A stretch of 64,000 bases of DNA from Bacteroidota bacterium (GCA_016713925.1 JADJOH010000008.1:453840-517839), one strand, 5' to 3'; shown: positions 27,783 through 58,132, numbered from the stretch's first letter. Program-made: numbers and translations. Notes: generated from the letters alone by a model not told the origin.

Positions 27783-30700
27783 ATGAATCATCTCTACACC
27801 CCCCTCATCCGAGTAAATAAGAAGACCGGAGAAGAAAAGAAATCGATGAGCAGGAGCCAAAAGTATGTGCTTATGCTGCTTCTTCTTTTTACCGGATTAC
27901 TTTCTTCCTCTACCATCTTTGCCCAAACATTGATTGCCGGTTGGGATTTTCAAACGACCACTACAGGAGGAACTGCTGTACTTGCATCTCCGAACACCCC
28001 CAAAGTGTATAATGCGAATTTTGGTTCAGGAGCCATTTATTTAGACGGAACCAATAATTCAAGCAATTGGTTTGTTCCACTGACTGGAAGTACGAATACT
28101 GAATTAAATGCCTTTGGCGGAACTGCTGTCAATGCCGGAACTGGATTTTCTGTTGTCACCTCCGGTGCATCTTCCTTAGCTTTAGTAGCAGGAGCTGCTC
28201 AGGCTGCCAATGGGAAATTCGCCATTTTTAGTTTTAGTATGACCGGTTATATTAATCTATCAGTGACGTATGCATCTCAAAAAACCAACACTGGTTTTAG
28301 CACGCAGATTTGGGAATACAGCACCGATGGAATAAACTGGACTCCATTATCTACAGTGACGACAGTAACCACAGCTTTTTCCTTAATTACATTGCCTTCT
28401 ACCGCTGGATTAAATGGAGCTTCTACTGCCTACCTTCGTTTCTCCGGAACCGGTGCCACTGCATCAACCGGTAATAACCGTCTTGACAATATTCAACTCA
28501 ACGCAACTCCGGGTGTCACTTTTAATACGGATCCGGTTACCGGTTCTCCCTTCTGTATCTCTGATGATAACAGTGCTTCCGTGAATGTTTCATTTTTCTA
28601 TGCAGGAACACCTAATCCGGCAAATATTTATACGGCAGAATTAAGTTCATCTACCGGAAGTTTTGCATCTCCTGTCGCGATCGGATCACTCGCTTCTATT
28701 GCAAGTACAGGCACTATTTCAGCCACTATTCCAGCCGGAACAATTTCCGGAACAGGCTATAGAATTCGTGTGACCAGCAGTGATCCTGTTGCGGTAGCGA
28801 ATGACAATGGAACCAATCTCGTCATCGATAAAGTGGTGGCGACTGCGTCTAATAACAGTCCTGTATGCGCTGGCCTTAGTCTTCAATTATTTTCGGGTGG
28901 AGGCACTACGTATTCATGGACCGGACCCAATGGTTTTGCTTCAGGTGTTCAAAATCCAACAATTCCGGTAACTGTAAATGCTGACTCCGGTGAATTTATC
29001 GCCACCGCCATTTCAACGCTCGGATGTACAGATACTGCTTCTACTCTTGCTATCGTTCAAACTTGCAGTTGTATTCCCCCGACTATCACTTCCAATTCAA
29101 CCATGCCAAGTTGTAATGGTGGAGCCAATGGTAGTATTGATATCACTGTTAATGGTGGTGTGTCTCCATACACTTTTACGTGGAGTACGGGTGCAATTAC
29201 AGAAGATGTTACAGGACTTACAGCGGGAATTTATTCCGTCATTGTAAGCGATGCCATTGCCTGTACAGATACCTTTTTTGTAACAGTAAATGAACCCACC
29301 CTCATCTCTTCTTCTACCACGGTATTTCCTCCGGGATGTCAGGGATTCAGTAATGGCAGCGTTGATTTGTCAGTAAACGGGGGTACGCCAGGCTATACTT
29401 ACCTTTGGGATAACGGTGCTACAACTGAAGATATCAACGGTTTGATAGCCGGCTTATACAGCGTAACCATCACGGATGCCAATGGATGTGTGCAAAATAA
29501 TTTCGCAGTAGTTACAGACCCGGGAGCGTTTACAGCAACCACAATTGGTTTTGATGTTACCTGCGCCGGATTGAATGATGGCTTGATTGATTTAATAGCA
29601 TCCAATGATACCGTCTCTTCAAACCCGGGTGTACTTATCTCCGAGTTTTTGGCAAATCCTGCAGGTACTGATTCTTCAAAAGAATGGGTGGAGCTGATTG
29701 CCGTTAAAAATATTGACTTTGCTGTTACTCCTTATACGGTGATCGTTGCCAATAACGGAACAGCTACAACAAAGGGATGGGTGCAAGGTGGCGTTGCTTC
29801 TGCAACCACCAATGGAACCTTCGCATTTCAAATCAGCTCCGGCAAAGTAGTTCCCGGGGAAGTGTTTTATGTGGGTGGATCAAATATGGTGGTCACAGGT
29901 AGAAAGTTGAGACTGATTGATGTTGCTACTACCGGTGGAGATGGTGGAATTGGTCTGCCAACCACAGGAGGAGTGCTTGGAAATGGTACGACGAATGCCG
30001 ACGGTATTGCGGTTTTTAATCTTCCTGCAGCGGCGTTGGATTCAAATTCAGTTCCGGTAGATGTCGTTTTTTATGGGTCAGGAATGGGATCTGCAGTAGT
30101 AAATGGTGGTGTAGATGGATTTACCTTGCCTCTAAATGATAATTATATCGGTGGAAGATTGCAAGCGACAAGTTTCAGAGCTGTAGATCCGGGTGCACTT
30201 TCCGTGAAAGCAACCGGAACTTATTACAAATTATCCGGAACGTATACTCCCATTCGTGTGTGGACAACTGATACCACTATTTCCGGTGACACTTCTTCTG
30301 TGACGTTGATGAGTGGCAATAGTTATCTCTGGTCAAATGGTGCTATAACAGAAGATTTGAGCGGGCTTTCTGCAGGCACTTACTCTGTAACAGTTACCTC
30401 TCCGACAGGATGTACAACTACCGGATCTGCTACCATCACTGCTCCGGTTACGCTGGCGGTTACCGGACAGATCTTTGACGTAACCTGTTTCGGATTAAAC
30501 GATGGGGGTATAGACATCACCGTTAGTGGTGGTGTGATGCCTTATACTTATCTGTGGAATGATGGCGATATCAATGAAGATAGAAGCGCACTGGTAACCG
30601 GTACATACATTGTTACCGTAACTGACGCCAACGGATGTATCGTTATTGATTCATTTTATGTCAACCAGCCTAATGATATTACCTATACCACGTTGGTTAC

Positions 30701-33560
30701 AAATACCTCCTGCTTCGGTGCTTCGGATGGAGCAATTGATTTAACCGTGAGCGGTGGAACTCCGCCTTATACCTTTAGCTGGTCCAATGGCGCTGTGACG
30801 GAAGATATCATCAATGAACTTGCTAATTTCTATTTCTTCAATATTACAGACGTTAACGGTTGTGGTGCAGGAGGAATTGAATTTATCAATGACCCTAACC
30901 CTATCATCATAAATAGTTTCACTCCTGCTACCGGTGGTGCCGGGGTTTTGGTGACCATTAACGGTAGCGGATTTACAGGCGCAACTAATGTAACGTTTGA
31001 CAATGTATCAGCTGCTTCTTTTACTGTCATCAGCGACTTGCAAATTGATGCTGTAGTTCCGCCGGGTGCAGATACCGGTTTTATAGCAGTATATACTTCA
31101 CCTGCTTGTTTTACTACATCTACCGATACCTTCTTCTTTAATCCTGTTGCATGCCTTCCTCCATCATTATCTGCAACAACCATTGGTGCGAGCTGCTTCG
31201 GAGCTTCAGATGGAAGCATTGATCTTACCATCAGTGGCGGTACTTCTCCTTACACCATCAGCTGGAGTAATGGAGCTAATTCAGAAGACATTGCCGGATT
31301 AACGGCCGGTGTTTATACCGTTTCAGTCGTGGATGCATTCAATTGCCCGAACACATTAACAGTAGCTGTTTCAGAACCCGGACAACTTACCATTAGTGGA
31401 ATAGTGGATAGTGTAAGTTGTAACAGTGGTGCAGATGGTAGCATAGATATAACAGTAACAGGCGGAACCTCTCCCTATACTTTTAGCTGGAGCAATGGTG
31501 CATTAACAGAAGATATCATTGGTCTTACAGCAGGATCTTATACGGTTACTGTTATCGATATTTCTTCATGTGCCGCATCGGCCAGCTTCGATGTATATGA
31601 ACCTTCTGCTTTAAATACGAATGTGAGTACTTCAGATCCATTATGCACAGGGCAGGCGTCCGGATCTATTAATCCGAATGTAAGCGGCGGTACGGCTCCA
31701 TATACTTATCTCTGGAGCAATGGTGCTACAAGTGCAACTTTAGCCGGGGTAATGGCCGGACTTTATACGGTTGATATCACTGATGCGAACGGATGTCTGA
31801 TATCCGCAAGTGCAACATTAACCGATCCTCCTGCATTTACATTGAGTGTTGTTTCAGCAACTGATGTTTCCTGCCCCGGTGGAAATAACGGAGCGATAGA
31901 CATCTCCGCTTCTAATGATCCTCTTGTACCACCTGTAAACCCCGGGTTGTTAATATCAGAATTTTTAGCAGATCCGGCCGGCACCGACAACCCTTTTGAA
32001 TGGGTAGAGTTGATTGCCACCAAGTCCATTGATTTCAGCGTTACGCCTTATACTGTTGTTGTTGCCAATAACGGTACGGCGAATGTCAAAGGATGGAGAG
32101 CAGGCGCTGCATTAACTTATGCCTTCCAAATTAGTAGTGGTGTAGTAAATCCCGGTGATGTGTTTTATGTGGGTGGTTCATCGATGGCACCTACAGGAAC
32201 AAAACTGAGAACTATTAATACATCAACTACCGCCGGTGATGGTTTTGGTAATGTTGGTATTGGCATAGGTAATGGTGGTGCAAATGCAGATGGTGTTGCG
32301 GTATTTGATATGCCTTCTTCAGCAATTGATTCTTCAAAGGTTCCTGTAGATGCCATTTTCTTTGGTACCGGTCTTGGAAGTGCAATTGTCAATGCAGGTC
32401 TGAATGGATATACCTTGCCAACAAATGATCGCTATGCAGGCGGATTATTATCGGCCGGTGCATTCACCGCTCCGAATAGTGCATCCGGGTCACATCATGT
32501 GGCTACTGGAGGTTTTAATATTTCTACCGGAACATATACTTCAATCAGAAACTGGACCCTGAGCCCGACATTCACGGATGGTACTTCTGCCATTTCAATA
32601 AGTGTAAATAATACCTATAGTTGGTCGACTGGTGCAACATCACAGGATATTTCAGGACTTACAGCCGGCGCGTATACTGTTACCGCAACCAATACTGATG
32701 GATGTACGGCTACGCTAACCCTTAACGTCAATCAACCAAACGCGCTTTCTGTAACAGGATTCACTCCCGGATCAGGTAATACCGGTACCGGTGTAATTAT
32801 CAGTGGCACCGGTTTTACTGCTGCAGATGAAGTTTGGTTCAATGGAGTACCTGCGGTATTCATCATTGATAATGACGGACAGATTTCAGCAACGGTTCCT
32901 GCCGGAGCAACTACCGGACCTATCACGGTTATCAATGCAGGTTGTGATACAGTTATTTCAGGTGGTACGTTTACAATTAATACGAATGCTACCTTCAACC
33001 TGACTATGCTGATAGAAGGTTTGTATGATGGAGCAGGCGGATTGGTGCCGGCCTTATTGAATTCAGGAGTTGGTCTTAGTGCAACTGAATGTGATACGAT
33101 TTATGTGGAGTTACGGGATCAGTTGAATACGTTAACGGTATTGGCGAGTGGTACTGCGGTATTGAATACCGGCGGACAAGCAACTTTTACCTTCCCCGGC
33201 TCAGTGATCGGTCAAAACGGATATATCGCAGTCTTCCATCGTAATGCTGTACAGACCTGGAGTGATCTTGTTACCTTCACTGCTACAACGAATTACAACT
33301 TCACCACTGCTGCTACTCAGGCTTATAGCTCCAATATGATTGAAGTGGATCCGGGCGTATTCGCGTTCTACAGCGGCGATATCGCTCCACAGGATGAAGT
33401 GGTGGATATTACCGATCAGGGGTATGTAGGAAATGACATATTAAACTTTGCTTCCGGCTATGTACCAACAGATGTATCGGGAGATGGAGTAGTGGATATC
33501 ACCGATCAGGCGATTGTAGACAATAACATCCTTAACTTCATTGGATCAATTCACCCTTAG
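27783..33560 (+). CDS. Giant secreted cell-surface protein A (1925 aa): SprB repeats, two lamin-tail domains, IPT/TIG domains, conserved C-terminal module with dockerin-like repeats
   Basis: The probable real start is Met22 (MSRSQKYVLMLLLLFTGLLSSSTIFAQ, about 27846). There are at least ten SprB-type repeats (C.G..DG.I......GG..PYT..WSNGA.TEDI.GL.AG.Y.V.V.D..GC). LTD motifs (LISEFLANPAGTDSSKEWVELIA; LLISEFLADPAGTDNPFEWVELIA) lie at about 29640 and 31950. IPT/TIG modules have the form I..F.P..G..G..V.I.G.GF. The C-terminal roughly 190 aa (about 32990-33560) are shared with the proteins ending at 44476 and 58132. Confidence 0.85.
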   Translation: MNHLYTPLIRVNKKTGEEKKSMSRSQKYVLMLLLLFTGLLSSSTIFAQTLIAGWDFQTTTTGGTAVLASPNTPKVYNANFGSGAIYLDGTNNSSNWFVPLTGSTNTELNAFGGTAVNAGTGFSVVTSGASSLALVAGAAQAANGKFAIFSFSMTGYINLSVTYASQKTNTGFSTQIWEYSTDGINWTPLSTVTTVTTAFSLITLPSTAGLNGASTAYLRFSGTGATASTGNNRLDNIQLNATPGVTFNTDPVTGSPFCISDDNSASVNVSFFYAGTPNPANIYTAELSSSTGSFASPVAIGSLASIASTGTISATIPAGTISGTGYRIRVTSSDPVAVANDNGTNLVIDKVVATASNNSPVCAGLSLQLFSGGGTTYSWTGPNGFASGVQNPTIPVTVNADSGEFIATAISTLGCTDTASTLAIVQTCSCIPPTITSNSTMPSCNGGANGSIDITVNGGVSPYTFTWSTGAITEDVTGLTAGIYSVIVSDAIACTDTFFVTVNEPTLISSSTTVFPPGCQGFSNGSVDLSVNGGTPGYTYLWDNGATTEDINGLIAGLYSVTITDANGCVQNNFAVVTDPGAFTATTIGFDVTCAGLNDGLIDLIASNDTVSSNPGVLISEFLANPAGTDSSKEWVELIAVKNIDFAVTPYTVIVANNGTATTKGWVQGGVASATTNGTFAFQISSGKVVPGEVFYVGGSNMVVTGRKLRLIDVATTGGDGGIGLPTTGGVLGNGTTNADGIAVFNLPAAALDSNSVPVDVVFYGSGMGSAVVNGGVDGFTLPLNDNYIGGRLQATSFRAVDPGALSVKATGTYYKLSGTYTPIRVWTTDTTISGDTSSVTLMSGNSYLWSNGAITEDLSGLSAGTYSVTVTSPTGCTTTGSATITAPVTLAVTGQIFDVTCFGLNDGGIDITVSGGVMPYTYLWNDGDINEDRSALVTGTYIVTVTDANGCIVIDSFYVNQPNDITYTTLVTNTSCFGASDGAIDLTVSGGTPPYTFSWSNGAVTEDIINELANFYFFNITDVNGCGAGGIEFINDPNPIIINSFTPATGGAGVLVTINGSGFTGATNVTFDNVSAASFTVISDLQIDAVVPPGADTGFIAVYTSPACFTTSTDTFFFNPVACLPPSLSATTIGASCFGASDGSIDLTISGGTSPYTISWSNGANSEDIAGLTAGVYTVSVVDAFNCPNTLTVAVSEPGQLTISGIVDSVSCNSGADGSIDITVTGGTSPYTFSWSNGALTEDIIGLTAGSYTVTVIDISSCAASASFDVYEPSALNTNVSTSDPLCTGQASGSINPNVSGGTAPYTYLWSNGATSATLAGVMAGLYTVDITDANGCLISASATLTDPPAFTLSVVSATDVSCPGGNNGAIDISASNDPLVPPVNPGLLISEFLADPAGTDNPFEWVELIATKSIDFSVTPYTVVVANNGTANVKGWRAGAALTYAFQISSGVVNPGDVFYVGGSSMAPTGTKLRTINTSTTAGDGFGNVGIGIGNGGANADGVAVFDMPSSAIDSSKVPVDAIFFGTGLGSAIVNAGLNGYTLPTNDRYAGGLLSAGAFTAPNSASGSHHVATGGFNISTGTYTSIRNWTLSPTFTDGTSAISISVNNTYSWSTGATSQDISGLTAGAYTVTATNTDGCTATLTLNVNQPNALSVTGFTPGSGNTGTGVIISGTGFTAADEVWFNGVPAVFIIDNDGQISATVPAGATTGPITVINAGCDTVISGGTFTINTNATFNLTMLIEGLYDGAGGLVPALLNSGVGLSATECDTIYVELRDQLNTLTVLASGTAVLNTGGQATFTFPGSVIGQNGYIAVFHRNAVQTWSDLVTFTATTNYNFTTAATQAYSSNMIEVDPGVFAFYSGDIAPQDEVVDITDQGYVGNDILNFASGYVPTDVSGDGVVDITDQAIVDNNILNFIGSIHP

Positions 33561-33586
33561 GAAGTAAGATTTTTATTAATAAGGAA

Positions 33587-33623
33587 AAAGGGCAGTGGGT
33601 AAATTTTACTACTGCCCTTTTTC
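33587..33623 (+). terminator. Rho-independent terminator after giant gene A
   Basis: aaagggcagt-gggtaaattttact-actgcccttt followed by tt. Confidence 0.7.
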
Positions 33624-33890
33624 AATTCATACTTTAAGTGATTTTTGAGCTGGTTAACGTTGGTTCATATGCCTTATTCTTATATGTTGCACAATAGCAG
33701 CCGCTTACAAGAATTTGAATGACATAATGTCAATGTAAGAAAGTGAATCATTTCACCCACTATTTCGTTTAATTCATAAAAAAATGAGATTTAACACTTG
33801 AATTTTAATTTATTTTTTGCAAATTGCAAGTTCGTTCATATCATTTTAGGAAGTTATAAAAAGTAAAAAACTAAATAATAATAATATATC

Positions 33891-35156
33891 ATGAAGCAAT
33901 TCTACTCAATCACAAAGGAGAAATCGAAGTATTTCAAGTTGGTATTTCGTATTTTCATCTTAGTTTTTATTAGTTGCACGGGAGTTTTCGCCCAATCAAC
34001 AATAAATACTGCCATTGCTCCCATTACAAACAATAATGGTAGTGGTACTGTTACTTTTAATTTCCAAAATACTAATCCCTATGGTATAATAATTACCGAC
34101 ATTGAAGGGATTGTTGGAACTGCAGGGCTAACTTCTGCGGATTTATGGATTAAAACAACACCGGTAAGTGCAGCACCTGGAGCAATTTCTGTTGCTAATG
34201 GATGGACTTTGGCTGCTACCGGCACTTTTACAGGAGTTGCTAATACGACGACGCTTGTAACTCAGCCAATGTTAACAGGAATAAGTGTTGTTATTCCTGC
34301 AGGAGTTACCTATGGGTTTGCAATATCAGCATATAGCGGTACTGCCGGCCGGCAACGATATCATACCATATTAGTAACAGATCCGACTACCTTTTCAGCA
34401 GGCGGTTGTAATATTTTAATGGGAGCAAATATCAGTTATGCGGGTGGAGCACCACCCACAGCACCAACAAATACTCCCCGTGGATGGATGGGAAAGTTAA
34501 CCTTTATACCTCAAGCTCCTTGTGTTGACCCACCCACCCCCGGAACTGCAATAACAACTCCTTCAACGCAGATTTGCCCAAATTCAGCATTGACATTAGA
34601 TCTAACAGGTAACAGTGGTGGTTTAGGTCAGACCTATCAATGGCAAACAGGCCCGACTGCTTCAGGTCCATGGACCAATATAGGTTCCTCGTCCGGCGCT
34701 CCATCATTAATAATTAATCCAACAGCTTCAGCTTATTACCAGTGTCTGGTTACCTGTGGATTAACTACCCTTCCTTCTACTGCAGTCTTTAATGATGTTG
34801 CCACTTTGTTCCCTGGCGGAACATATACCATAAACAGTGCACTTCCTACGGGCGGCGGAAATTATGCGTCTTTTAATGATGCGGTTGCAGCCATTCAATG
34901 TGGTATTGCAGGTCCTGTAATTTTCAATTTTGCTCCGGGTAGCGGACCGTATGTTGAACAGGTCATTATACCTCAAATAGGTGGAACTTCAACGACGAAC
35001 ACAATTACCTTTAACGGAAATGGTGTCTCCATGATAGCTGCCAGTGCGAATACCAATCAACGAGAGGCCATACTTTTAAATGGAGCGGATCATATTACCA
35101 TTGATAGCATTCTCATTGATGTAAGTGGGGGTACCTATGGATGGGAATCCGGTTAA
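33891..35156 (+). CDS. Giant cell-surface protein B, N-terminal fragment (421 aa); continues in 35141..44476 after a -1G event in a G-run
   Basis: Signal peptide MKQFYSITKEKSKYFKLVFRIFILVFISCTGVFAQ. The end ...TITFNGNGVSMIAASANTNQREAILLNGADHITIDSILIDVSGGTYGW aligns with the internal repeat of B2 (TITFNGNLETLAFASANTNQRAVITLSGADHIYIDSLTIDASGGTYGYGVHLISQADSN). Reading continues in the +1 frame (GIRLTNSADSN) if tgggaatcc is read as tggggaatcc. Confidence 0.8.
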   Translation: MKQFYSITKEKSKYFKLVFRIFILVFISCTGVFAQSTINTAIAPITNNNGSGTVTFNFQNTNPYGIIITDIEGIVGTAGLTSADLWIKTTPVSAAPGAISVANGWTLAATGTFTGVANTTTLVTQPMLTGISVVIPAGVTYGFAISAYSGTAGRQRYHTILVTDPTTFSAGGCNILMGANISYAGGAPPTAPTNTPRGWMGKLTFIPQAPCVDPPTPGTAITTPSTQICPNSALTLDLTGNSGGLGQTYQWQTGPTASGPWTNIGSSSGAPSLIINPTASAYYQCLVTCGLTTLPSTAVFNDVATLFPGGTYTINSALPTGGGNYASFNDAVAAIQCGIAGPVIFNFAPGSGPYVEQVIIPQIGGTSTTNTITFNGNGVSMIAASANTNQREAILLNGADHITIDSILIDVSGGTYGWESG

Positions 35157-44530: not shown

Positions 44531-44558
44531 TTATAACTATTGTATTAGTGACGGAGCA

Positions 44559-45197: not shown

Positions 45198-45267
45198 AAT
45201 TCAAATATAAGTAGTTCGATATAATTTATGTATCACTATTATTAGTCAGATATTGATAAATTCAGAA

Positions 45268-48982: not shown

Positions 48983-51481
48983 ATGATCACACGTCGTGTA
49001 TTGATGAAAACAAATAACCAACATATGAAAACAATTACCAGTTCACCAGGTTTGAATAAAGTCAGACCTGTTTATTTTTTGCTACTCTTTACTCTCAGTT
49101 TCATGACTTGTTTTGAGTCGGTAGCACAAGTTGCTTACAATTGGACGTCAACAACAGGTGGTACTTATACACAATTATCCGGAGGAGGTATAACAGTGAT
49201 TAATGCCAATGCCGGATTGTCATCAGGTCTGTCTAATAGTCAGGATGACGGAGCAGCTCTTGTTACACTGCCCTTCACATTTACGTACATGGGTAATCCG
49301 TTCACTGAGGTTACTTTTTGTACGAATGGCTGGATAGGAATGGGTAATCAGATGACCATTTCCGCCAGTAATTCGAGAGTTGGTGGAAACTTATTTACTG
49401 CAACCGCTCCCGTTAATACAATTGGTGTATGGTTTAAAGATATGGGCGCCAATTTTCCTGCCACTCAGCCGGGAACAGGTCCGGGTAGTATGCGACATGG
49501 TTTAACCGGAACAGATATTTATACCTTTCAATGGGATCAGGCTGTCGGCAGCAGCTTCAGCATTACCACAGCTAACCTTATCAGATTTCAAGTTTCTATC
49601 CATGGACCTGCTTCAGCCACGCCCGGCCGGATTGAATTGTTATATGGAACAACTACCGGAACTATAACTGCCACAGGAGCAGCTATAGGAATAGAAAATG
49701 CAACCGGAGGAACCAATAATTATATCAATGCATTAAACGGATTACAGAACTCAACAACTACTTCATCCGCATGGCCGGGTAATGGAAACGGATGGCGTTT
49801 CGATCCGCAAGCTCCCTGTGTCATTCCTGCTGATCAACCCACCGCATTAACATTAACCCCTGTTTCTACCTCTCAAATTGACGGTTCATTTACTCCGGCA
49901 GGCAGTACGCCTAATGGGTATTTAGTAGTGCGTTATCCTAATGGTGCGGCAACTACAAATCCTGTAAATGGCACTACCTATATAGCCGGGCAATCTCTTG
50001 GTTTGGGTACCGTTGTTTCGTTTGGAGCAGCTACAAGTTTTAGCACTACAGGTCTTACCGGAAGTACCACCTTTGATTATTACGTTTACGCCTATAATAA
50101 TTTACTTTGTTCAGGAGCACCTGCCTACAATACGACGATTAACGCCGGACAAAATTCAGGATCAGCTTCAACAAATGCCTGCGGTGTAATTGCATCTCCA
50201 ATAACTGTCGGACCTACAGGAACCTATCCTACTTTAAGCGGACCGGGTGGCGCCATTGCCGCTATTGCTACAACAGGTATTTCATCTCCACTGGTTATAG
50301 AAATGCAAAGCACTTATACCGGAGCAGGAGAAACCTATCCGATAACGATGTCTTATGATGCATGCATCACTGCTACTAATAATGTGACTATTCGTCCGGA
50401 AGTGTCGGCCACTTCTGCCATTTTAATTACCAGTAATCATGCGACTTCCACCATTGATATGAATGGAGCCAGTTTTATTACTATCGATGGCCGCCCGGGC
50501 GGATCTGGAACCGATAAATTTTTAACGATAGAGAATACCGGTACCACCGGTCAGTCGGTATTATTGAGAAACGAATCTTCTAACAACACACTTACCTATC
50601 TGGATGTCCGCGCTGCGAATGCGAACGGAGCGAACAATACAACTACAGCGTTGGCAGGAAGTACCATTCCCGGAGCAATTGCTATTGGTACTACTACCGG
50701 AGCAAATGGAAACGATAATAACACCATTTCATTCTGTGATGTACACAGTATTACCTCCGGTGGAAACCTTGGTGTCTGTATCTATGCTTATAATTCAACC
50801 GCAGCAGGTACAGCTTCCAATAATGATAACAACAGTATTATCAATAATAATATTTATGATTTCTTCCTTGGTGCTTTGGCTTCAGCAGGTATCAATGTTA
50901 CTCCGGGTAATAATAATTATAGTATTGCTAACAACCGTATTTATCAGACATCTTCCCTGACTTATACCGGCACACAAACGGTTCGTGGTATGTGGATCTC
51001 ACCTAATACAGGATCTTTAACCTCGGCAAGCGGTTATGTGATTTCAAACAATAGTATTGGTTACAGTACTTCTGCGGGTACGGGCACTTATACAATGACC
51101 GGTACAACCGCGTGGTTGTTTAGTGGGATGGATTTATCCTTAGGAATTGGTACTGCTTCTTCTGTTCAAAATAACACAATTACCAATTTTAATGTGACAT
51201 CCGGTAATACCGGCTCCACTGCTTTTGTTGGAATTAACGTCGCCAATGGTGTAGTAGATATTGGAACAGTTACAGGGAATTTAATCGGATCAAACACTGT
51301 AAATGGTGCAATTACTTTTACTGCTACCGCTAATACCGGAGGAGTTCTTGGTATCAGAACAGGTGGTGGAAGTTTAATCAACATAGCCAACAACCAGATT
51401 TCAGGAGTAGATTTGCTTTCATCTGTACTTACCGTAACACCCATATTCAATGGTATTGCCGTTTCCGGGGTACAACAGTGA
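48983..51481 (+). CDS. Giant cell-surface protein C, fragment 1 of 3 (832 aa); likely real start at Met15 (MKTITSS..., about 49025)
   Basis: Signal peptide ...FLLLFTLSFMTCFESVAQ. N-terminal module with LPFTFTYMGNPFTEVTFCTNGWIGMG; beta-helix-like Asn-rich repeats. It ends at a G4 run; the reading continues in the -1 frame (51478..51936). Confidence 0.8.
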   Translation: MITRRVLMKTNNQHMKTITSSPGLNKVRPVYFLLLFTLSFMTCFESVAQVAYNWTSTTGGTYTQLSGGGITVINANAGLSSGLSNSQDDGAALVTLPFTFTYMGNPFTEVTFCTNGWIGMGNQMTISASNSRVGGNLFTATAPVNTIGVWFKDMGANFPATQPGTGPGSMRHGLTGTDIYTFQWDQAVGSSFSITTANLIRFQVSIHGPASATPGRIELLYGTTTGTITATGAAIGIENATGGTNNYINALNGLQNSTTTSSAWPGNGNGWRFDPQAPCVIPADQPTALTLTPVSTSQIDGSFTPAGSTPNGYLVVRYPNGAATTNPVNGTTYIAGQSLGLGTVVSFGAATSFSTTGLTGSTTFDYYVYAYNNLLCSGAPAYNTTINAGQNSGSASTNACGVIASPITVGPTGTYPTLSGPGGAIAAIATTGISSPLVIEMQSTYTGAGETYPITMSYDACITATNNVTIRPEVSATSAILITSNHATSTIDMNGASFITIDGRPGGSGTDKFLTIENTGTTGQSVLLRNESSNNTLTYLDVRAANANGANNTTTALAGSTIPGAIAIGTTTGANGNDNNTISFCDVHSITSGGNLGVCIYAYNSTAAGTASNNDNNSIINNNIYDFFLGALASAGINVTPGNNNYSIANNRIYQTSSLTYTGTQTVRGMWISPNTGSLTSASGYVISNNSIGYSTSAGTGTYTMTGTTAWLFSGMDLSLGIGTASSVQNNTITNFNVTSGNTGSTAFVGINVANGVVDIGTVTGNLIGSNTVNGAITFTATANTGGVLGIRTGGGSLINIANNQISGVDLLSSVLTVTPIFNGIAVSGVQQ

Positions 51482-51936
51482 ATGTGACAAATAATACTAT
51501 AGGTAGTTTAACGCTTGCCAATAGTATCAATGCCGTTTCCGCATCTACTTCTACATCGATTCAATCGATTCGAGGTATTACAGTGAATAGTGGCGCAACT
51601 GCCAGAGTTGTTACCGGTAATATCATTGCCAATATGAATACGAATATTGCAGCTGTCGGAACACAGGCAACATCTATGCAGGGTATTCAGGTGACTGCAG
51701 GTACCGTTACTGTTTCTAACAATACAATTACCAACCTCAGTTCAAGTACGCAAACTACTTCCGGAGGTAATACTTCTGCTATTGTGGGAATTGCCTATTC
51801 CTCTACAACAGCACCTGCAACGATCAGTGGTAATACCCTTCATACATTGCGATTAACGAGTCCTCTTGCAACGGGAGCAACAACTTGTCAGGCGATTACT
51901 TTTTACAGGACCTACGACAGGAACCAATGTTATTGA
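51478..51936 (+). CDS. Giant cell-surface protein C, fragment 2 of 3 (152 aa, GTG-start artefact)
   Basis: It continues the Asn/Thr-rich beta-helix repeats (NNTITNLSS...). Reading passes into 51866..58132 if the T5 run near 51905 is read as T4 (...CQAITFTGPTTGTNVIEKNNIHSL). Confidence 0.75.
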   Translation: MNVTNNTIGSLTLANSINAVSASTSTSIQSIRGITVNSGATARVVTGNIIANMNTNIAAVGTQATSMQGIQVTAGTVTVSNNTITNLSSSTQTTSGGNTSAIVGIAYSSTTAPATISGNTLHTLRLTSPLATGATTCQAITFYRTYDRNQCY

Positions 51937-54900
51937 AAAGAATAACATTCATAGTTTATCGCTGGCTAACACGGCAAACACGTTAGGAGTTTTGTCGGGA
52001 ATGGATGTTGGATCAGGTCTGGTAACGATAAAAAATAACATGATTCGTTTGGGGCTTGATGAAAACGGAAACAGTGTAACTGCGGGCATCTTGATTCGCG
52101 GTATTTCAAGTAATTCTACGACTCAGAACATATACAATAACAGTATCTATATTGGTGGAACAGGAGTAGCTTCGTCAACTGTTAATTCAACCTGTTTTCA
52201 AAAGACAGGGGCTGTCGTTGCGGATGTCCGGAACAATATTTTCATGAACGACAGAAGCAATGCTGCCGGAACAGCGAAACACTATGCAGTTAATTTAAAC
52301 AACTCGACTTCACTCACATTAAATTACAATGATTACTACGGAACAGGTACAGGGTATGTGTTTGGATTTAACGGTACAACTGACTTTGCAACGTATTCAT
52401 CCGGTTGGGTGGCGAGTGATATCAACAGTCAGGCGGGCAATCCTGAATTTATCAATCCGGCAGGTACAGCAGCAACCGGAGATTTACATATTCATCCAAC
52501 TAATCAAACCATCATCGAACAAAATGGAACGAACATCGCTTCGGTAACAGATGATTTTGACGGACAATCACGTGCCGGATTCACTCCAGATGATATCGGT
52601 GCTGATGCAGGAAATTTTGCCGGATTCTTCTGCTCCGGTCCTCCCTCTTCTGCAACGGCTACCTTAGCAATTCCTGGTCAGGTGTGTGGTAATGTTACAA
52701 AAACGATGTTCCTCTCCGGATTTACTGCATTGCCGGGTTATACTTATCAGTGGCAAGAGTCAGCTACAGGTTTGCCGGGTTCATTTGTTAATGTTACCGG
52801 AGGTACAGGCGCAAATGCTATTAGTTACACTACCGCAATATTAAATGCCTCCATGTATTACCAATGTGAAATTGGTTGTTCATTTGGAGCAGGAACTACT
52901 ACTTCAAGTTCGGTTTTTGCAGACATACTTCCTGTACCAGTAATAACTGCTACACCGACTACCGGAACCAGCGTATGCAGCGGGGCTAATGTGGATTTAT
53001 CTGCCAGTGGTGCGAATACTTATACCTGGACTGTAAATCCGGGTGTGGCAGGTTATCCGGTAGTATCCTTGTTAACCACAAGGAATAATTTAGCTAATGT
53101 AACCTCAAGGCCAACTTCTACGCTTGCATCAAGTACTGCCACTCCTCCGGCCACTGTTGCAACTCCAACATGGACTTATACAGTAACCGGAACTGCATTG
53201 AATGGATGTACATCGCAAGCTGTGGTAGTTTTAAATGTGGTCACATCACCGGTTGTTCCTGTTCAGTTAACCTATACTTATTCACCTGACCCCGTATGTG
53301 CAACCGGAACGCCTGTAACCTTTACAGTAAATAATCCGGGAACTATTGGTGCAGGAAGCTGGGTGTACAATTGGTATGATCAATCCGGAACAACATTGCT
53401 TCAAAGCACTACCACTGCATCCGCTACAGATAACTATACCCCTACAACACCAGTTGCTAATGGTAATTATATTTATCAGGTACGTGCGAGCAATACGGAG
53501 TGCCCTGCATCGTATGCAGTAGCATCACCTTCGTATTTTGTTGGTTATACTTCATTGAATGTTGTTTCGGACGCGAATTGTGGTGATAACGGAGTAGCGA
53601 CCGTTTATCCGGAAGGACAAAACAGTTTCACAACATGGTATTCGAATAATTTTGCTACCGGCCTACAAGGACCTGCATTCGATGCATCCTTCGGTAATAC
53701 CAATTTTACAAGCGGAAGAGCCAATATCACCAATCAGGCAAATGGCCAGACCGGTGCTTTGGTCATCAGAAATTCTGCGTTCATCAATACAAACAATTTG
53801 CAGGTTGATTTTAAAATGTCAACAGGCCCCCGCGGATTTGCCTTTAATATATTAGGAGCAGATGGTATGTGTTGGAGTTATGGTGGAGATGTTACTGTAG
53901 GAACAGTGACAACAGGAGGACAAGGTGAAGGAGGGTCAGGTACAGGACTTAAGCTTGCATTTGATGCAACGGCAAACGGGCCGAACAATCAGCCGGGTTG
54001 TTACCTCATGTTTAATTGTACAGTAGTAGGGCAGGGTCCCGGTGATCCCGGAGTACTTGCTTATAAGTTAGGATCCTGGTGGCAGGGACTGGTGGATGCA
54101 CCTGTTGCGATCATCATCAGTCAGAATGGATTTGTAACAGTAACCGTAAACAATGAGGTGATTTTTGATCATGTACCCTTGCCGGCCTCTTATCTCACCA
54201 GCAATAAAAGCAACTGGATACATTCGTTCACTGCACGTACGGGTGGTTCAAACCAATTACATGCTATTGACGATTTAAATATTCGTTATAATAGTTACGA
54301 GTATAGCAACAACAGTACGACCGGTTTAGATGGAACATGGCAATCTTCAAATACCTTCTCAGGACTGGCAGCAGGTACCTATCCGTTATGGGTACGTAAT
54401 CCTGTAGATCCTACCTGCGTTTCGAATGTGGGTAATGCCATTATTGGAACCAGTCCTTCGCCTTCATCAGCCATTACTGTTGCTGCGCCTGGTTTTAATA
54501 CAACCATTTGTGCAGGAAGCAGTACTGATTTAACTACGGATGTTTCTATTCCGGGTGCTGTCTTTTTATGGGAAACAGCCGCTTCAGTAGGAGGTCCTTA
54601 CTCGCCGGCACCGGGAGTAAACAATACCGCCATCTACTCGACAGGTACTTTATTGGCGAGTGCTTACTATCGTTGTACTTTTACTTGTCCGAGCTCTTCT
54701 CCTGTGACCTCTACACCTGTATTGGTAACCGTTAACAGCGGAACGATTACTTCAACGAATTCACCTCAACAAGTAAACTGTCTGAACAGTATAGCTACTG
54801 TTACCGCTAACCCCGGACCGAATACAACAATTGTTTGGTATGCCAGTCCAAGTGGGGGTTCACCATTGTTTTCAGGAAACAGTTATTCCGTCACCCCTTC

Positions 54901-57900
54901 ATCGTTTCCTTCGACGTACTATGCGGAGCCTGTAACAACAACTTTTACCAATCATTATGATTTAGGAGGGGAAAAATCTGTGGGTGGAAATTTAAATGGC
55001 GGATCTGCAGCCGGTATCAATATTTCAAGTAAATTTAATACGACGGCAAGTATCAGAATTGACAGTATTAAGGTGCTTCCAAATGCTGCCGGTACACTTA
55101 CGGTTGCCTTACAGAATGCAGGATCTGCCACTAATATTTCTTCGTTTAATCAAACAATTTTAGCAGCGCAGGTGGGAACCTTTGTAAATGTTCCGGTGAA
55201 CTTTGTGGTAACCGGTTCAGGAAATTACCAGTTGACAACAAGTGGAGTAACCTGTTCCTATAATCCTACTTATCCTCCGGCCAACTATGGCCTTTCTTAC
55301 ATGAATCTGGGAGGAGTATTCTCCATTGTGGGTGGTTCAACAACACCAACAGGTGCTACCAGTACAAGTGTATATGGAACTTCGTATAATTGGAGTATTA
55401 CTACTTCCTGTCCGACAGGTGGTGCCAGAGTACCTGTGGTTGTGGATATAAACCCTGCGAGTCTGGTGACCGTAAATCCATCATCATCTACTTTCTGTGT
55501 GGGAGGTTTTGCACAACTCGTAGCTTCCAGCCCGACAGTATATAGTGATTACGGATGGTCTCCGGTAACTAATCTTTTCATTGATTCCCTGGGAACAATT
55601 CCATATACCGCAGGAACCAATGAAGATACTGTTTATGCGATTCCTGCTGCGGGAGGTTCAATCACCTATACTGCTTCTACTGCTGTAACCGGATGTACCA
55701 ATACTGCTACTGCTGTTGTTACAGGAAACCCTTCTCCAATAATAACGGCTACAACTACTACGCCTGTATTATGTAATGGTGATACAGCTCAGATTTCTGT
55801 AAACATCACTTCGCCGGTTTCTGTTAACTATTCCGTTACTTCTATCCCTCATGCTCCGTTGGATCCCACCGGTTCAAGTGATTGGGGAGCCGGTCCTTCC
55901 GGTGATGATTCGCAGGTAGCAACTACTCTTCCGTTTCCTTTCACGTATTTCGGAACGGCGTATACAAATGTGAGTATTTACTCAAATGGATTCATTCAGT
56001 TTGGAACCAGCAGTAACTCTACTACTGTATATGGTGCAAACATTCCAAGTGCTGCTAACCCAAATAATATTGTCGCTCTGGCCTGGGAAGATTTTAACGT
56101 TGTATCTCCGGATAGTATTCGTTTCTATACTGTAGGTGCTGCTCCTAACCGTCAGTGGGTAGCCGAATGGGTGAACGTTGACTTCTTTACTACAGGAGGT
56201 AATGTCAGTGGACAGATTGTTTTAAATGAGGCGGACAACACGATCGATATTTATCATACTAATATTGATAACAATGGTAATCAGACGGCTTGTGGTGTTG
56301 AAAACAGTAACGGTACCGCCGGTTTTACACCTCCGAGCCGTAATTTCTCGTTATGGACTCCTAATCCGGTTGTGAATGAAGCCTGGAAGTTTACGCCTCT
56401 TCCTGCCACAAATATCAGTTGGTCGGGTGCTAATATCATTGGCTCTTCCACTGAAGCGAATATTCAGGCTAATCCTCCTTCTTCCGGTTACTTCACTGTC
56501 ACCGTCACAAATCCGCTCAATGGATGTACAAGAGCTGATTCAGTATTGATTAGTTCAAGTGTGAATCCTAAACCTGTCATCACTGACAACGACACTACCT
56601 TGTGTAACCCTGATTTCATTTACGTGAATGTGGTGGATACCGGTGCATTTGTTGGCGGCTATCCTGCAGGTACAAACTTTACCTGGAGCGCTATCGGAGT
56701 TGCGATTCCTGATCTGGATTCTATCAGCTCAAGCAATGGTTCTTCTTACTCAGTTATCATTACACTGCCTAGCGGATGTTCTGCAAGTTCTGATACCGCT
56801 ACTATCCTGACCAAGTCGGTGGCGGTAGTGGATGTGATTACTCCTGCAAGTTGTACCACAGGTGGTTCAATCGCTGTAACCGTAACCAGCGGATTACCGA
56901 ACTATAATTACATCTGGTCCACCGACCTTGCTCAAACCAATATCATCAGCAACGTAACGAAGGCGAACAATCAGGATACATTAAGTAACCTGACCGCCGG
57001 TACTTATTACCTGCAGGTATATGATGAAGCGGGAAGTCCTGCCTCTTGTAATTCCGGTGTATTGACCTATGTTGTTTCGGGATCCTCTCCGATCGTGATC
57101 GATTCAGTGATTGGAACAGATATCTCCTGTAACGGATTTGCTGATGGATCAGCCACCGTATTCTGGACCGGAGGAACTGCGCCATACAACATCTTGTGGA
57201 GCGATGGAAATACCAACGCAACGCGTGCAGTTACTGCCGCTGCTACATTAACGGTGATTGTATCGGATAACTCCGGTTGTGCAGATACATCATCTGTTAC
57301 CATCAATGAGCCTGCATCAATTACCCTGACCCTTTCATCTACTAACGAAAGCGCCCCCGGTGCTAACGACGGTACAGCTTCAGTAGTAATAGCAGGTGGA
57401 ACTCCCGGCTATGTCATTGAGTGGTACGATGCATTATTTACATTGATTGGTAGCGGTACTCCAATTACAGGTCTTACAGGTGGAACGTATACGGCTGTGG
57501 TAACAGACACCAACGGTTGTCAAGGATTTGATAACGTAGTGATCACGACTAACACCAACGCTATTCTTAATCTGACCATGCTGATTGAAGGTATGTATGA
57601 TGGAGCAGGCGGATTGGTGCCGGCCTTACTGAATTCAGGAGTAGGCGTTAGTTTGACAGAATGTGATACGATCCGTGTAGAAATCCGTGATCAGTTAACC
57701 CCTGGCAATATTCTGGCTTCCGGAACAGCAGTACTTGGCACCAATGGCCAGGCGAGCTTTACTTTCCCGGCTGCCATTAACGGTGCTAACGGTTACATCG
57801 CGGTGTTCCATCGTAACGCGGTACAGACATGGAGTGATTTGCTCACCTTCTCTGCTACAACGAACTACAACTTCACCACTGCGGCTACTCAGGCCTTCAG

Positions 57901-58132
57901 TTCCAATATGATTGCTGTAGCGCCGGGCGTATTCGCGTTTTACAGTGGCGATATCGCTCCACAGGATGACGTGGTGGATATTACCGATCAGGGCTATGTA
58001 GGAAATGATATCTTGAACTTTGCTTCCGGCTATGTACCAACGGATGTATCGGGAGATGGAGTAGTGGATATCACCGATCAGGCGATTGTAGATAATAACA
58101 TCTTAAACTTCATTGGATCGATTCATCCATAA
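51866..58132 (+). CDS. Giant cell-surface protein C, fragment 3 of 3 (2088 aa): beta-helix, Ig-like modules, lectin-like domain, SprB repeats, shared C-terminal dockerin-like module
   Basis: The motif LPFPFTYFGTAYTNVSIYSNGFIQFG recurs (also in fragment 1). A possible L-type lectin-like segment reads ...GLKLAFDATANG...HAIDDLNIRY. The last 1573 nt are near-identical to the 3' end of gene B. It ends ...DVSGDGVVDITDQAIVDNNILNFIGSIHP. Confidence 0.85.
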   Translation: MQREQQLVRRLLFTGPTTGTNVIEKNNIHSLSLANTANTLGVLSGMDVGSGLVTIKNNMIRLGLDENGNSVTAGILIRGISSNSTTQNIYNNSIYIGGTGVASSTVNSTCFQKTGAVVADVRNNIFMNDRSNAAGTAKHYAVNLNNSTSLTLNYNDYYGTGTGYVFGFNGTTDFATYSSGWVASDINSQAGNPEFINPAGTAATGDLHIHPTNQTIIEQNGTNIASVTDDFDGQSRAGFTPDDIGADAGNFAGFFCSGPPSSATATLAIPGQVCGNVTKTMFLSGFTALPGYTYQWQESATGLPGSFVNVTGGTGANAISYTTAILNASMYYQCEIGCSFGAGTTTSSSVFADILPVPVITATPTTGTSVCSGANVDLSASGANTYTWTVNPGVAGYPVVSLLTTRNNLANVTSRPTSTLASSTATPPATVATPTWTYTVTGTALNGCTSQAVVVLNVVTSPVVPVQLTYTYSPDPVCATGTPVTFTVNNPGTIGAGSWVYNWYDQSGTTLLQSTTTASATDNYTPTTPVANGNYIYQVRASNTECPASYAVASPSYFVGYTSLNVVSDANCGDNGVATVYPEGQNSFTTWYSNNFATGLQGPAFDASFGNTNFTSGRANITNQANGQTGALVIRNSAFINTNNLQVDFKMSTGPRGFAFNILGADGMCWSYGGDVTVGTVTTGGQGEGGSGTGLKLAFDATANGPNNQPGCYLMFNCTVVGQGPGDPGVLAYKLGSWWQGLVDAPVAIIISQNGFVTVTVNNEVIFDHVPLPASYLTSNKSNWIHSFTARTGGSNQLHAIDDLNIRYNSYEYSNNSTTGLDGTWQSSNTFSGLAAGTYPLWVRNPVDPTCVSNVGNAIIGTSPSPSSAITVAAPGFNTTICAGSSTDLTTDVSIPGAVFLWETAASVGGPYSPAPGVNNTAIYSTGTLLASAYYRCTFTCPSSSPVTSTPVLVTVNSGTITSTNSPQQVNCLNSIATVTANPGPNTTIVWYASPSGGSPLFSGNSYSVTPSSFPSTYYAEPVTTTFTNHYDLGGEKSVGGNLNGGSAAGINISSKFNTTASIRIDSIKVLPNAAGTLTVALQNAGSATNISSFNQTILAAQVGTFVNVPVNFVVTGSGNYQLTTSGVTCSYNPTYPPANYGLSYMNLGGVFSIVGGSTTPTGATSTSVYGTSYNWSITTSCPTGGARVPVVVDINPASLVTVNPSSSTFCVGGFAQLVASSPTVYSDYGWSPVTNLFIDSLGTIPYTAGTNEDTVYAIPAAGGSITYTASTAVTGCTNTATAVVTGNPSPIITATTTTPVLCNGDTAQISVNITSPVSVNYSVTSIPHAPLDPTGSSDWGAGPSGDDSQVATTLPFPFTYFGTAYTNVSIYSNGFIQFGTSSNSTTVYGANIPSAANPNNIVALAWEDFNVVSPDSIRFYTVGAAPNRQWVAEWVNVDFFTTGGNVSGQIVLNEADNTIDIYHTNIDNNGNQTACGVENSNGTAGFTPPSRNFSLWTPNPVVNEAWKFTPLPATNISWSGANIIGSSTEANIQANPPSSGYFTVTVTNPLNGCTRADSVLISSSVNPKPVITDNDTTLCNPDFIYVNVVDTGAFVGGYPAGTNFTWSAIGVAIPDLDSISSSNGSSYSVIITLPSGCSASSDTATILTKSVAVVDVITPASCTTGGSIAVTVTSGLPNYNYIWSTDLAQTNIISNVTKANNQDTLSNLTAGTYYLQVYDEAGSPASCNSGVLTYVVSGSSPIVIDSVIGTDISCNGFADGSATVFWTGGTAPYNILWSDGNTNATRAVTAAATLTVIVSDNSGCADTSSVTINEPASITLTLSSTNESAPGANDGTASVVIAGGTPGYVIEWYDALFTLIGSGTPITGLTGGTYTAVVTDTNGCQGFDNVVITTNTNAILNLTMLIEGMYDGAGGLVPALLNSGVGVSLTECDTIRVEIRDQLTPGNILASGTAVLGTNGQASFTFPAAINGANGYIAVFHRNAVQTWSDLLTFSATTNYNFTTAATQAFSSNMIAVAPGVFAFYSGDIAPQDDVVDITDQGYVGNDILNFASGYVPTDVSGDGVVDITDQAIVDNNILNFIGSIHP

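Follow-up and report, generated by a model that had tools for sequence, protein, structure and literature searches.

The window, by which we mean the whole 64-kb stretch of DNA analysed here, carries three giant genes on its plus strand. Gene A (27783–33560) is one intact ORF of 1925 aa, and its product is identical to MBK7888784.1 ('MAG: SprB repeat-containing protein [Bacteroidetes bacterium]'). Gene B (33891–44476; about 3,530 aa after repair) now consists of two ORFs (33891–35156 and 35141–44476), one G being missing from the G-run at 35143–35145. Gene C (48983–58132; about 3,050 aa after repair) consists of three ORFs (48983–51481, 51478–51936 and 51866–58132), with indels in the G-run at 51467–51470 and in the T-run at 51900–51904. 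The original prediction had placed the three large genes correctly, but B and C are split and are not the uninterrupted genes that it described. Each break is an indel of one base in a homopolymer. The break in B is read through in a single-ORF orthologue (L017, 10869–20318), and both breaks in C are read through in two others (L003, 2–5443, and P0146), each of which is one ORF. Since orthologues are intact across all three breaks, the latter are either assembly errors or the result of very recent pseudogenisation.

Each protein begins with a hydrophobic, signal-peptide-like N-terminus ending in ..FAQ or ..VAQ (judged by eye from the sequence), in agreement with the signal peptides initially proposed. 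In the product of gene A, the signal peptide is followed by SprB repeats, two LTD-like regions, a TIG-like domain and a tail that resembles an X-module–dockerin dyad (XDoc). Ahead of a tail of the same kind, B has beta-helix repeats, six Ig_7 domains, an LTD-like region and SprB repeats, and C has an fn3-like region, beta-helix-like repeats, Ig_7 and SprB repeats. Pfam matches to SprB repeats in all three proteins (243.8 bits in A, 33.5 in B and 42.8 in C), to Ig_7 ('CHU_C associated') in B and C (137.6 and 33.2 bits) and to Beta_helix in B (27.4 bits for a cut-off of 25.9) bear out these parts of the domain make-up first proposed; the LTD matches (30.8 and 24.5 bits for a cut-off of 34.3) and the TIG_SUH match (20.2 bits for a cut-off of 24) fall short.

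A two-component system (44559–48447) lies on the minus strand, convergent with gene B. It consists of a LuxR/GerE response regulator (44559–45197) and a Reg_prop/Y_Y_Y/HisKA_3 sensor kinase (45268–48447). The GC content of the gene cluster (0.41–0.47) is like that of its flanks, and related MAGs show the same gene order. This undistinct composition and the synteny speak against a foreign island, and the term gene cluster replaces the 30-kb 'island' initially proposed.

The C-terminal module

The same 196-aa module closes A, B and C (A versus B 87%, A versus C 86% amino acid identity), confirming that a C-terminal module of about 190 aa is common to the three proteins. It is encoded on the plus strand at 32970–33557 in A, where the protein ends in ..GSIHP, at 43886–44473 in B (module HMM, E = 1.4e-90) and at 57542–58129 in C (E = 7.7e-92). 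This module is the only DNA that A has in common with B and C (584 nt, 82–84% identity), and the 3' ends of B and C have 1,569 nt in common (92.4% DNA identity). A relic of a fourth copy is present on the plus strand at 58604–58744; it comprises the last 46 aa only (GNDILNFSFGYIPTDVSGDGVVDITDQAILDTNVLNFVGSIHP, then a stop), lacks an upstream ORF and matches the ends of the three genes at 81–85% DNA identity. The terminal ..HP of the module is invariant. In A, the predicted X-module beta-sandwich spans approximately residues 1–135 (32970–33374), Ca-loop 1 lies at 33378–33416 with helix 1 next, to about 33443, and Ca-loop 2 lies at 33471–33506 with helix 2 next, to about 33533.

Por_Secre_tail and CHU_C gave no Pfam match on the last 219 aa of the tails at E ≤ 10, and no NCBIfam family matched the tails at the same threshold. 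No type A CTD (PF18962/TIGR04183) is present at the extreme C-terminus; the sole type A match in A is internal (residues 929–951, 20.9 bits) and meaningless. No type B CTD (PF13585 CHU_C/TIGR04131) was found on the tails and, using Pfam, no PorP/SprF-like gene in the window; the proteins have the SprB repeats of SprB-type gliding adhesins, but Pfam and NCBIfam searches of the window revealed neither their type B CTD nor an SprF-like gene. The NCBIfam search was also empty for a type C CTD (ChiA-like, cl41395), a result that counts only if the release holds such a model, which we take to be the case. The type C class was defined in PMC10202324. Given these searches, a standard T9SS CTD was rejected as the identity of the tail, and they agree with the earlier observation that it does not end in a recognisable type A or type B sorting domain.

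Dockerin repeats were sought as two units of about 22 residues (Ca-loop plus helix) placed about 30 residues apart, with a 12-residue loop of pattern D-x-[DN]-x-D-G-x-x-D-x-x-D and a helix after it. The tail has such a tandem, its two loops being spaced by 31 residues. The repeats had been said to match the type I dockerin consensus very closely; this holds for loop 2 (DVSGDGVVDITD), which is a canonical Ca-loop, but loop 1 of the window (DIAPQDEVVDITD) has a 1-aa insertion and lacks the position-3 ligand, and relatives have a canonical loop 1 (DLN-QDEVIDGSD). D142, D149, D168, G171 and D179 are invariant, as are the Ca-ligand Asp residues and the Gly of both loops.

The tails of the window score 15.9–16.2 bits with Dockerin_1 (PF00404; E about 0.013) and do not reach the gathering threshold of 22.9. 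Failure of this model and absence of Ca-binding loops had been named as evidence against a dockerin; the first applies to the window tails, but a Flavobacterium cheonhonense relative passes (27.9 bits), 33 of 70 family members match at E ≤ 1e-3 (best 2.2e-9), and the predicted structure shows the loops. About half of the module family already carries the PF00404 label in databases. When the family profile (A2) was compared with PDB sequences, the top 17 matches were all dockerins, with both repeats covered (best E = 1.6e-4), and dockerins were the only solved structures matched. These profile matches, together with a predicted fold that matches dockerin structures, uphold the dockerin-type tail of the original prediction and support the conclusion that it is a dockerin-type module rather than a recognisable T9SS sorting domain.

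An AF2 model of the tail built with a 70-sequence alignment had a pLDDT of 96.8 and a pTM of 0.92; it was used in place of a model from 24 sequences, in which the dockerin half was poor (pLDDT 52–68). It predicts two loop-helix motifs, with helices at residues 147–158 and 177–188, and an Ig-like X-module that immediately precedes the dockerin and packs on it as a rigid unit. In Foldseek, type II XDoc accounted for each of the top eight matches (E 1e-6 to 2.5e-5), with a target-normalised TM of 0.65–0.67 against XDoc-only chains. The X half has no Pfam match, and sequence identity to the CipA XDoc is only 14–16%. The predicted XDoc fold is confident. It makes type II XDoc, rather than type I dockerin, the closest analogue, and it speaks against the proposal that the upstream domain of about 110 aa is a separate sorting or secretion signal, since this domain is predicted to pack with the dockerin as one unit.

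Sequences with this tail make up a very large family that lacks annotation. The 90% clusters yielded 33 close matches and 389 matches by profile, and representatives of 50%-identity clusters number 12,753, 7,857 and 3,626 at E ≤ 1e-3, 1e-10 and 1e-30, respectively; we state the family size as at least 3,626 50%-identity clusters. In 145 of the 150 top carriers, the match ends within five residues of the C-terminus. Carriers range from 200 to 5,162 aa, with SprB, Ig_7 'CHU_C associated', PKD, TIG and GEVED as passenger domains, and they appear in NCBI, UniRef and JGI entries as 'hypothetical', 'SprB repeat-containing', 'Ig-like domain-containing' or 'beta strand repeat-containing'. The module is present in at least 559 genomic stretches, often in many copies per genome, and all 79 loci retrieved have Bacteroidota-type genes. 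Small secreted dockerin-only proteins and X-only C-termini also occur; two apparent 'module-only' proteins of 183–190 aa (P0244 and P0266) are really pieces of frameshifted giant genes in long-read assemblies. No published description of the module was found in the literature on dockerin or XDoc with T9SS, SprB or Flavobacterium.

An N-domain gene downstream of XDoc genes

About 25 carrier genes in other genomes are followed, 15–480 nt downstream, by a gene for a secreted protein that we call the N-domain protein. Its signal peptide and conserved N-domain of about 170 aa are followed by a spacer of variable content (PKD_6, MopE, Big_2, Ig_7 or none), and complete copies end in a T9SS type A sorting domain; the downstream genes carry Por_Secre_tail and have one N-domain in common. 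Among the module ends with room downstream, 32 of 96 (about 25 genes) have a same-strand N-domain ORF within 1.5 kb, and in 25 of 27 loci the N-domain matches lie in that position. Conversely, all five close N-domain genes on usable contigs come after an ORF ending in XDoc, with a gap of 80–175 nt. The pairing spans Flavobacteriales and Chitinophagales, is present in the cultured strains Flavobacterium sp. J49 and F. cheonhonense JCM 17064, and the locus of the closest relative (L001) has an N-domain gene. Roughly two in three XDoc genes lack an N-domain gene beside them.

The window of 64 kb contains no N-domain gene, and Pfam Cohesin matched none of its ORFs of at least 150 aa, in keeping with the initial report that no cohesin-like partner is visible there. 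That report had left the partner without a name; its absence from the window stands, and the question is narrowed by the conserved neighbour family of other genomes, which is a candidate receptor for the XDoc tail. Surface-protein genes tend to cluster, so adjacency alone is no proof of binding. Assignment of the N-domain to the cohesins is unsupported by sequence: it has no Pfam match, its best PDB match by profile is FlaF (E = 0.039), and hhalign against three CipA type I cohesins gave a probability of 0.1 with a thin profile. Nor is it a copy of the X-module, as hhalign against the XDoc profile gave a probability of 0.6%. The 1165-aa protein encoded upstream of A (22315–25812) was also considered as a partner and rejected; it has no Pfam, NCBIfam or PDB match, is unrelated to the Flavobacterium downstream genes, and its gene is syntenic only in the window's own lineage.

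Models for the function of the tail

We propose that the tail is a docking module, related to the cellulosomal XDoc by homology or analogy, that plugs the adhesin into a surface receptor (probability about 0.6). An Ig-like X-module beta-sandwich would be packed on a dockerin whose two loop-helix (F-hand) repeats bind Ca2+; once exported by Sec, folded and loaded with Ca2+, the tail would dock, and the giant SprB-repeat/beta-helix/Ig adhesin would be held non-covalently in a cell-surface receptor. The best candidate for the latter would be the N-domain family encoded directly downstream of XDoc genes in other Bacteroidota, and its type A sorting domain would ensure secretion and fixation on the outer surface. 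Cargo with a type A sorting domain is secreted and attached to the outer surface. The three proteins of the window would use an N-domain-type receptor encoded elsewhere in the genome. The non-covalent plug leaves unexplained the outer-membrane transit of proteins of 2,000–3,500 aa that lack a T9SS signal.

The model for such docking is the type II XDoc of Clostridium (Acetivibrio) thermocellum CipA (PDB 2B59, 3KCP, 5G5D, 5K39, 4FL4), which is likewise C-terminal on a very large multi-domain extracellular protein and whose partners are the type II cohesins of SdbA, OlpB and Orf2p. As in CipA, the tail is presumed to be a cell-anchoring plug; it differs in its host (a diderm Bacteroidota instead of a Firmicute), in its cargo (SprB/beta-helix/Ig adhesins instead of cohesin scaffoldins) and in its candidate receptor, which would be held by a T9SS type A sorting domain instead of SLH domains and shows no sequence similarity to cohesins. 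The XDoc of Acetivibrio cellulolyticus ScaA, which binds the ScaB cohesin (PDB 4U3S, 4WI0), has the same dyad fold (Foldseek E 1.6e-6 to 2e-6, target-normalised TM 0.65–0.66), but belongs to another phylum, with other cargo and a known cohesin. The docking model would take XDoc anchoring beyond Gram-positive cellulosomes and their enzyme scaffolds, to adhesins of diderm bacteria with a T9SS. It would also name a very large family of C-terminal modules on Bacteroidota surface proteins and assign it a function open to testing.

In a more speculative version, the cohesin–dockerin-like assembly might be wired into the T9SS. The XDoc would bind the N-domain of the small type A-CTD protein encoded next door, maybe already in the periplasm, and the adhesin would piggy-back on its partner's sorting domain and be held on the surface by the partner's attachment, dockerin-only proteins acting as competitors or adaptors. 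We regard this version as tentative; if true, it would be a new route of T9SS cargo recruitment and the first XDoc–receptor pair outside Firmicutes.

Alternatively, the tail might be a fourth, unrecognised T9SS C-terminal sorting domain read by the translocon or a shuttle, its dockerin likeness reflecting a reused fold; the type A protein encoded downstream would then be its cognate helper, the role that PorP/SprF-like proteins play for type B cargo. Several observations are consistent with this proposal, which is compatible with the docking model: the module's extreme C-terminal position in nearly all top carriers, its restriction to Bacteroidota-type loci among those retrieved, its many paralogues per genome, its invariant ..HP terminus and its passengers (SprB, Ig_7, PKD, TIG and GEVED), which are typical of T9SS cargo. 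The carriers examined have no other sorting domain, all have Sec signals and all need to pass the outer membrane. The tail also resembles type B CTDs (TIGR04131/CHU_C) of SprB-like adhesins in being carried by giant SprB-repeat/Ig_7 Bacteroidota proteins, in the length of the functional C-terminal part (about 200 aa) and the dedicated gene directly downstream, both described for type B CTDs in PMC10202324, and in not being known to be cleaved off. We nevertheless consider a fourth sorting domain doubtful. Type A and B models, and type C if present in the release, had no match at E ≤ 10, TIGR04131/CHU_C included; the extreme C-terminus is an alpha-helical dockerin and the predicted fold an XDoc, whereas known CTDs are beta-sandwiches; the gene next to it specifies a soluble T9SS cargo of type A and not a PorP/SprF outer-membrane barrel; and dockerin-only secreted proteins and X-only C-termini better fit modular binding domains. 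The absence of type A and B sorting domains, and of type C if the release has its model, raises the question of how proteins of 2,000–5,000 aa reach the surface, for which a specific candidate partner gene and cultured carrier strains are on offer.

It is unlikely that the tail is a Ca2+-dependent module binding exopolysaccharide, LPS, the substratum or itself (adhesin networks in flocs), with a downstream gene that is merely co-regulated. Aggregation matters in activated sludge and freshwater, the habitats from which the source lineage comes, the three carriers of the window have no candidate receptor in it, two thirds of carriers lack the neighbour gene, and cohesin-free dockerin-like modules are widespread beyond cellulosomes (Peer et al., 2009, as cited in PMC6487960). 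However, general clustering poorly explains a directional, short-gap pairing found across two orders and in all five reverse cases, and the full XDoc dyad geometry, a protein–protein interface in Clostridia, is kept. The Dockerin_1-type repeats reported on non-cellulolytic proteins (Peer et al., 2009), and the Bacteroidetes dockerins of rumen metagenomes (PMC6487960), resemble the tail; they are isolated repeats, unlike a fixed C-terminal X plus Doc dyad with a family of thousands and a conserved neighbour gene. It is very improbable that A–C are decaying pseudogenes whose tail has no present function in this organism. The three frame breaks and the truncated fourth copy would fit decay, but every break is a single-base homopolymer indel, relatives from long-read 'tig...' assemblies have similar ORF fragmentation and orthologues from short-read MAGs are intact; furthermore, gene A is intact, about 25 kb of coding sequence shows no further stops or decay, and the module residues are conserved.

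Should binding of the N-domain to the docking tail be confirmed, the pairs would provide new orthogonal Ca-dependent docking modules for surface display. A regulator/kinase pair similar to that of the window recurs beside XDoc genes at other loci, and such two-component pairs may regulate the XDoc genes.

Genes A, B and C and their common 3' end

Over their last 196 aa, the proteins encoded by the three giant surface-protein genes A, B and C share 86-87% identity, which confirms the common C-terminal module of the original prediction. At the DNA level, this 584-nt module is all that A has in common with B and C (82-84% identity), and B and C share a 3' end of 1,569 nt (92.4% identity). A relic of a fourth copy, encoding 46 aa of the last dockerin repeat only (58604-58744, + strand), lies 120 nt upstream of a Cys/Met PLP-enzyme gene. 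Two loci retrieved from other genomes, L005 and L011, have a giant gene that terminates at the place equivalent to this relic. Together, the relic and the position of these gene ends suggest that recombination has given gene C a B-like 3' end in place of its original one.

Three large coding regions are present on the + strand as predicted, but only gene A (27783-33560, 1925 aa) is free of frame breaks: gene B consists of two overlapping ORFs (33891-35156 and 35141-44476) and gene C of three (48983-51481, 51478-51936 and 51866-58132). Direct reading of the DNA placed every frame break at a homopolymer. The G-runs 35143-35145 in gene B and 51467-51470 at the first break of gene C are each short by one G, and the T-run 51900-51904 at the second break of gene C has one T too many. 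After repair gene B reads ..GTYGW/GIRLTNS.., in agreement with its internal repeat ..GTYGYGVHLISQ... The breaks may be real recent frameshifts; we take B and C to be single genes with assembly-type indels, because their orthologues are single ORFs straight across the breaks (L017 10869-20318 for gene B; L003 2-5443 and the protein relative P0146 for both breaks of gene C), and because the closest relatives, which are long-read 'tig...' assemblies, show similar ORF fragmentation. MBK7888784.1, from a 1.18-Mb MAG contig, is identical to gene A.

Pfam confirmed the SprB repeats (243.8 bits in A, 33.5 in B, 42.8 in C), Ig_7 (137.6 bits in B, 33.2 in C) and Beta_helix (27.4 bits in B) of the proposed domain make-up, but the LTD and TIG matches were sub-threshold. 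As judged by inspection, the N-termini of A, B and C resemble the Sec signal peptides proposed for them.

An XDoc-like tail family

The view that the tail is not a recognisable T9SS sorting domain was borne out by HMM searches, as neither Por_Secre_tail nor CHU_C (Pfam) matched the tails, nor did any NCBIfam model at E<=10. The close dockerin match that had been claimed held in part: the window tails reach 16 bits on Dockerin_1, below the cut-off of 22.9, but they retain the Ca-ligand pattern in both loops. Loop 1 of the window clade has a one-residue insertion (DIAPQD.., compared with DLN-QD.. in relatives). D142, D149, D168, G171 and D179 are invariant among 70 sequences; the terminal ..HP of the tail is also invariant. 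Dockerin_1 matched 33 of 70 family members at E<=1e-3 (best 2.2e-9), and the first ~135 residues of the module were covered by no Pfam family in the 70 members scanned. When the family profile was compared with all PDB sequences, the top 17 matches were dockerins with both repeats aligned (best E 1.6e-4).

AlphaFold2 gave a good beta-sandwich and a weak dockerin half with 24 sequences, and a model of pLDDT 96.8 and pTM 0.92 with 70 sequences, in which strands extend over residues 6-133 and helices over 147-158 and 177-188. The top eight Foldseek matches of the predicted fold were all type II XDoc chains, i.e. X-module plus dockerin, from C. thermocellum and A. cellulolyticus (E 1e-6 to 2.5e-5; target-normalised TM 0.65-0.67 for XDoc-only chains); the first match after these had E 1e-3. 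In structure comparison isolated dockerins scored 5.6-6.2, and a T9SS CTD (mirolase, 8qb1_A) scored 5.8, no higher than generic sandwiches. From the predicted fold and the XDoc matches, the '110-aa domain', proposed previously as a separate sorting or secretion signal, is modelled instead as an X-module packed on the dockerin and no independent signal. Large proteins ending in an X-module only were also observed (L005 5017-9876, L011 11975-12610, L003 17294-20116 and L012 15564-15995). They stop right after the X half (..TNFTFKQ* or ..TNYNFK*), and this stop is conserved across different MAGs; the X-module thus also occurs as a C-terminus without a dockerin.

A single-sequence search with the tail yielded 33 relatives, all with a ..[GS]xxP C-terminus. 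When 1.84 billion representatives were searched with a profile, 12,753 matched at E<=1e-3; 7,857 of these had E<=1e-10 and 3,626 had E<=1e-30. Among the 150 best carriers, the match reaches to within 5 residues of the protein C-terminus in 145, and carrier proteins span 200-5,162 aa. At least 559 stretches came up in the genome scan; the 79 loci that were retrieved belong to Flavobacterium, Flavobacteriaceae, Crocinitomicaceae, Chitinophagaceae, Sphingobacteriales and unclassified Bacteroidota MAGs, and often show 5 to >10 copies per genome. Five MAG contigs labelled Bifidobacterium (breve or 'uncultured': L015, L027, L029, L047 and L061) bear SprB-repeat/XDoc genes of Bacteroidota type; they are probably mis-binned or mislabelled Bacteroidota. 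Carriers are named 'hypothetical', 'SprB repeat-containing' or 'beta strand repeat-containing' in their sources, and those that pass Pfam 'dockerin type I domain-containing'; half of the family already has the PF00404 label.

Dockerin-like repeats in Bacteroidetes were noted earlier (PMC6487960), and our literature searches turned up neither the X+Doc dyad family nor the T9SS-linked neighbour. Among known systems, the XDoc of CipA or ScaA, together with the type II cohesin that anchors it, comes closest. It resembles the present one in dyad fold and C-terminal anchoring logic; it differs in phylum and cell envelope as well as in its cargo and type of receptor, and here the cohesin is only a candidate.

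A candidate receptor encoded downstream

ORFs were called in every locus, module ends were located and their 3' neighbours compared. Many XDoc carriers are followed, 10-50 nt on, by a gene on the same strand. Complete downstream genes encode a T9SS type A sorting domain (Pfam) in L065, L071, L081 (two genes), L030, L032, L045, L051, L059, L074, L001 and L052. The downstream proteins vary in their middles (PKD_6, MopE, Big_2, Ig_7 or none), and all share one ~170-aa N-terminal domain (N-domain) after the signal peptide. An N-domain HMM was applied to the 96 complete module ends that have 700 nt or more of downstream sequence, and 32 of them (~25 genes) are followed, within 1.5 kb, by the start of a same-strand N-domain ORF. 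N-domain matches occupy the downstream position in 25 of 27 loci, and the family consists mostly of ~300-aa proteins bearing PF18962. Conversely, all five close N-domain genes on usable contigs (L082, L083, L084, L086 and L087) lie downstream of an XDoc-ending ORF, with a gap of 80-175 nt and a complete upstream module (E 5e-69 to 1e-91); one distant member, in L085, is not preceded by an XDoc ORF. No N-domain gene is present in the 64-kb window; L001, whose module is nearest to that of the window, has a downstream gene encoding N-domain, SprB/MopE, PKD_6 and a type A CTD, and the Bifidobacterium-labelled L047 also bears an N-domain gene. The N-domain had no match in Pfam, nothing beyond FlaF (E 0.039) among PDB sequences, and no similarity by hhalign to CipA type I cohesins or to the X-module.

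Small secreted dockerin-only ORFs of 103-126 aa, with a signal peptide, a beta-hairpin and two dockerin repeats and lacking the X-module, were observed in six loci (L008 10652-11026, L030 3103-3414, L032 625-948, L035 10668-10979, L043 10675-11022 and L047 3945-4325), each between a giant XDoc gene and an N-domain/type A CTD gene.

The analysis shows the family, its C-terminal position, the conserved Ca-loops, a predicted XDoc fold, the lack of known T9SS signals and a conserved downstream gene family with a type A CTD. In the model proposed, the tail would be a Ca-dependent plug tethering the adhesin to a surface receptor, and the N-domain protein would be that receptor, one receptor possibly serving several XDoc proteins. 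The N-domain protein itself would be exported and surface-attached by T9SS, because export and surface attachment are established for type A cargo (PMC10202324). As for transit of the adhesin across the outer membrane, the tail could double as a new T9SS signal, a dual role that we consider rather unlikely, or the adhesin may ride out bound to its partner.

Other genes in the window and in retrieved loci

A 61-aa ORF (MKKTINKLSLNKMTISNLNESEMHQRVGG/KKSDYFCGSPTSLTSCNVSNCSTRRNCPVVVK; 58220-58405, - strand) is situated between gene C and the relic of the fourth module. In NCBIfam it passes the cut-offs of lant_leader_L1a (35.4 bits versus 22) and TIGR04149 GG_sam_targ_CFB (29.6 bits versus 25). 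It resembles a RiPP precursor, having a GG leader and a core rich in Cys; no modification enzyme was observed in its vicinity. In the 1453-aa ORF 1199-5560 (- strand), a full AcrB-type RND pump (residues 5-1032; ACR_tran, 932 bits) is joined to an outer-membrane factor domain (residues 1265-1450; OEP); the ORF is either a real fusion or the result of a stop codon lost through assembly error. Two overlapping ORFs (11194-11778 and 11729-12853, + strand), with no Pfam match, may represent a single gene that a further homopolymer indel has divided.

A 1165-aa protein (22315-25812, + strand) matched nothing in Pfam, NCBIfam or PDB, and its end (..QVRAYF) looks like that of an outer-membrane barrel. 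Its gene adjoins one (26342-27259, - strand) whose 305-aa product combines a transmembrane helix, a coiled coil and a beta domain. In 8-9 related MAG loci both genes are conserved immediately upstream of the gene A orthologue. In L086, KwaA/KwaB (Kiwa anti-phage defence; 330-1819) lie a few kb upstream of the XDoc/N-domain pair. Two-component genes encoding Reg_prop/Y_Y_Y/HisKA_3 sensor kinases and LuxR/GerE response regulators are present in the window at 44559-48447 (- strand) and 60530-63595 (+ strand); such genes also adjoin XDoc adhesin genes in L002, L007, L011, L082 and L087, including other lineages, and may be dedicated regulators.
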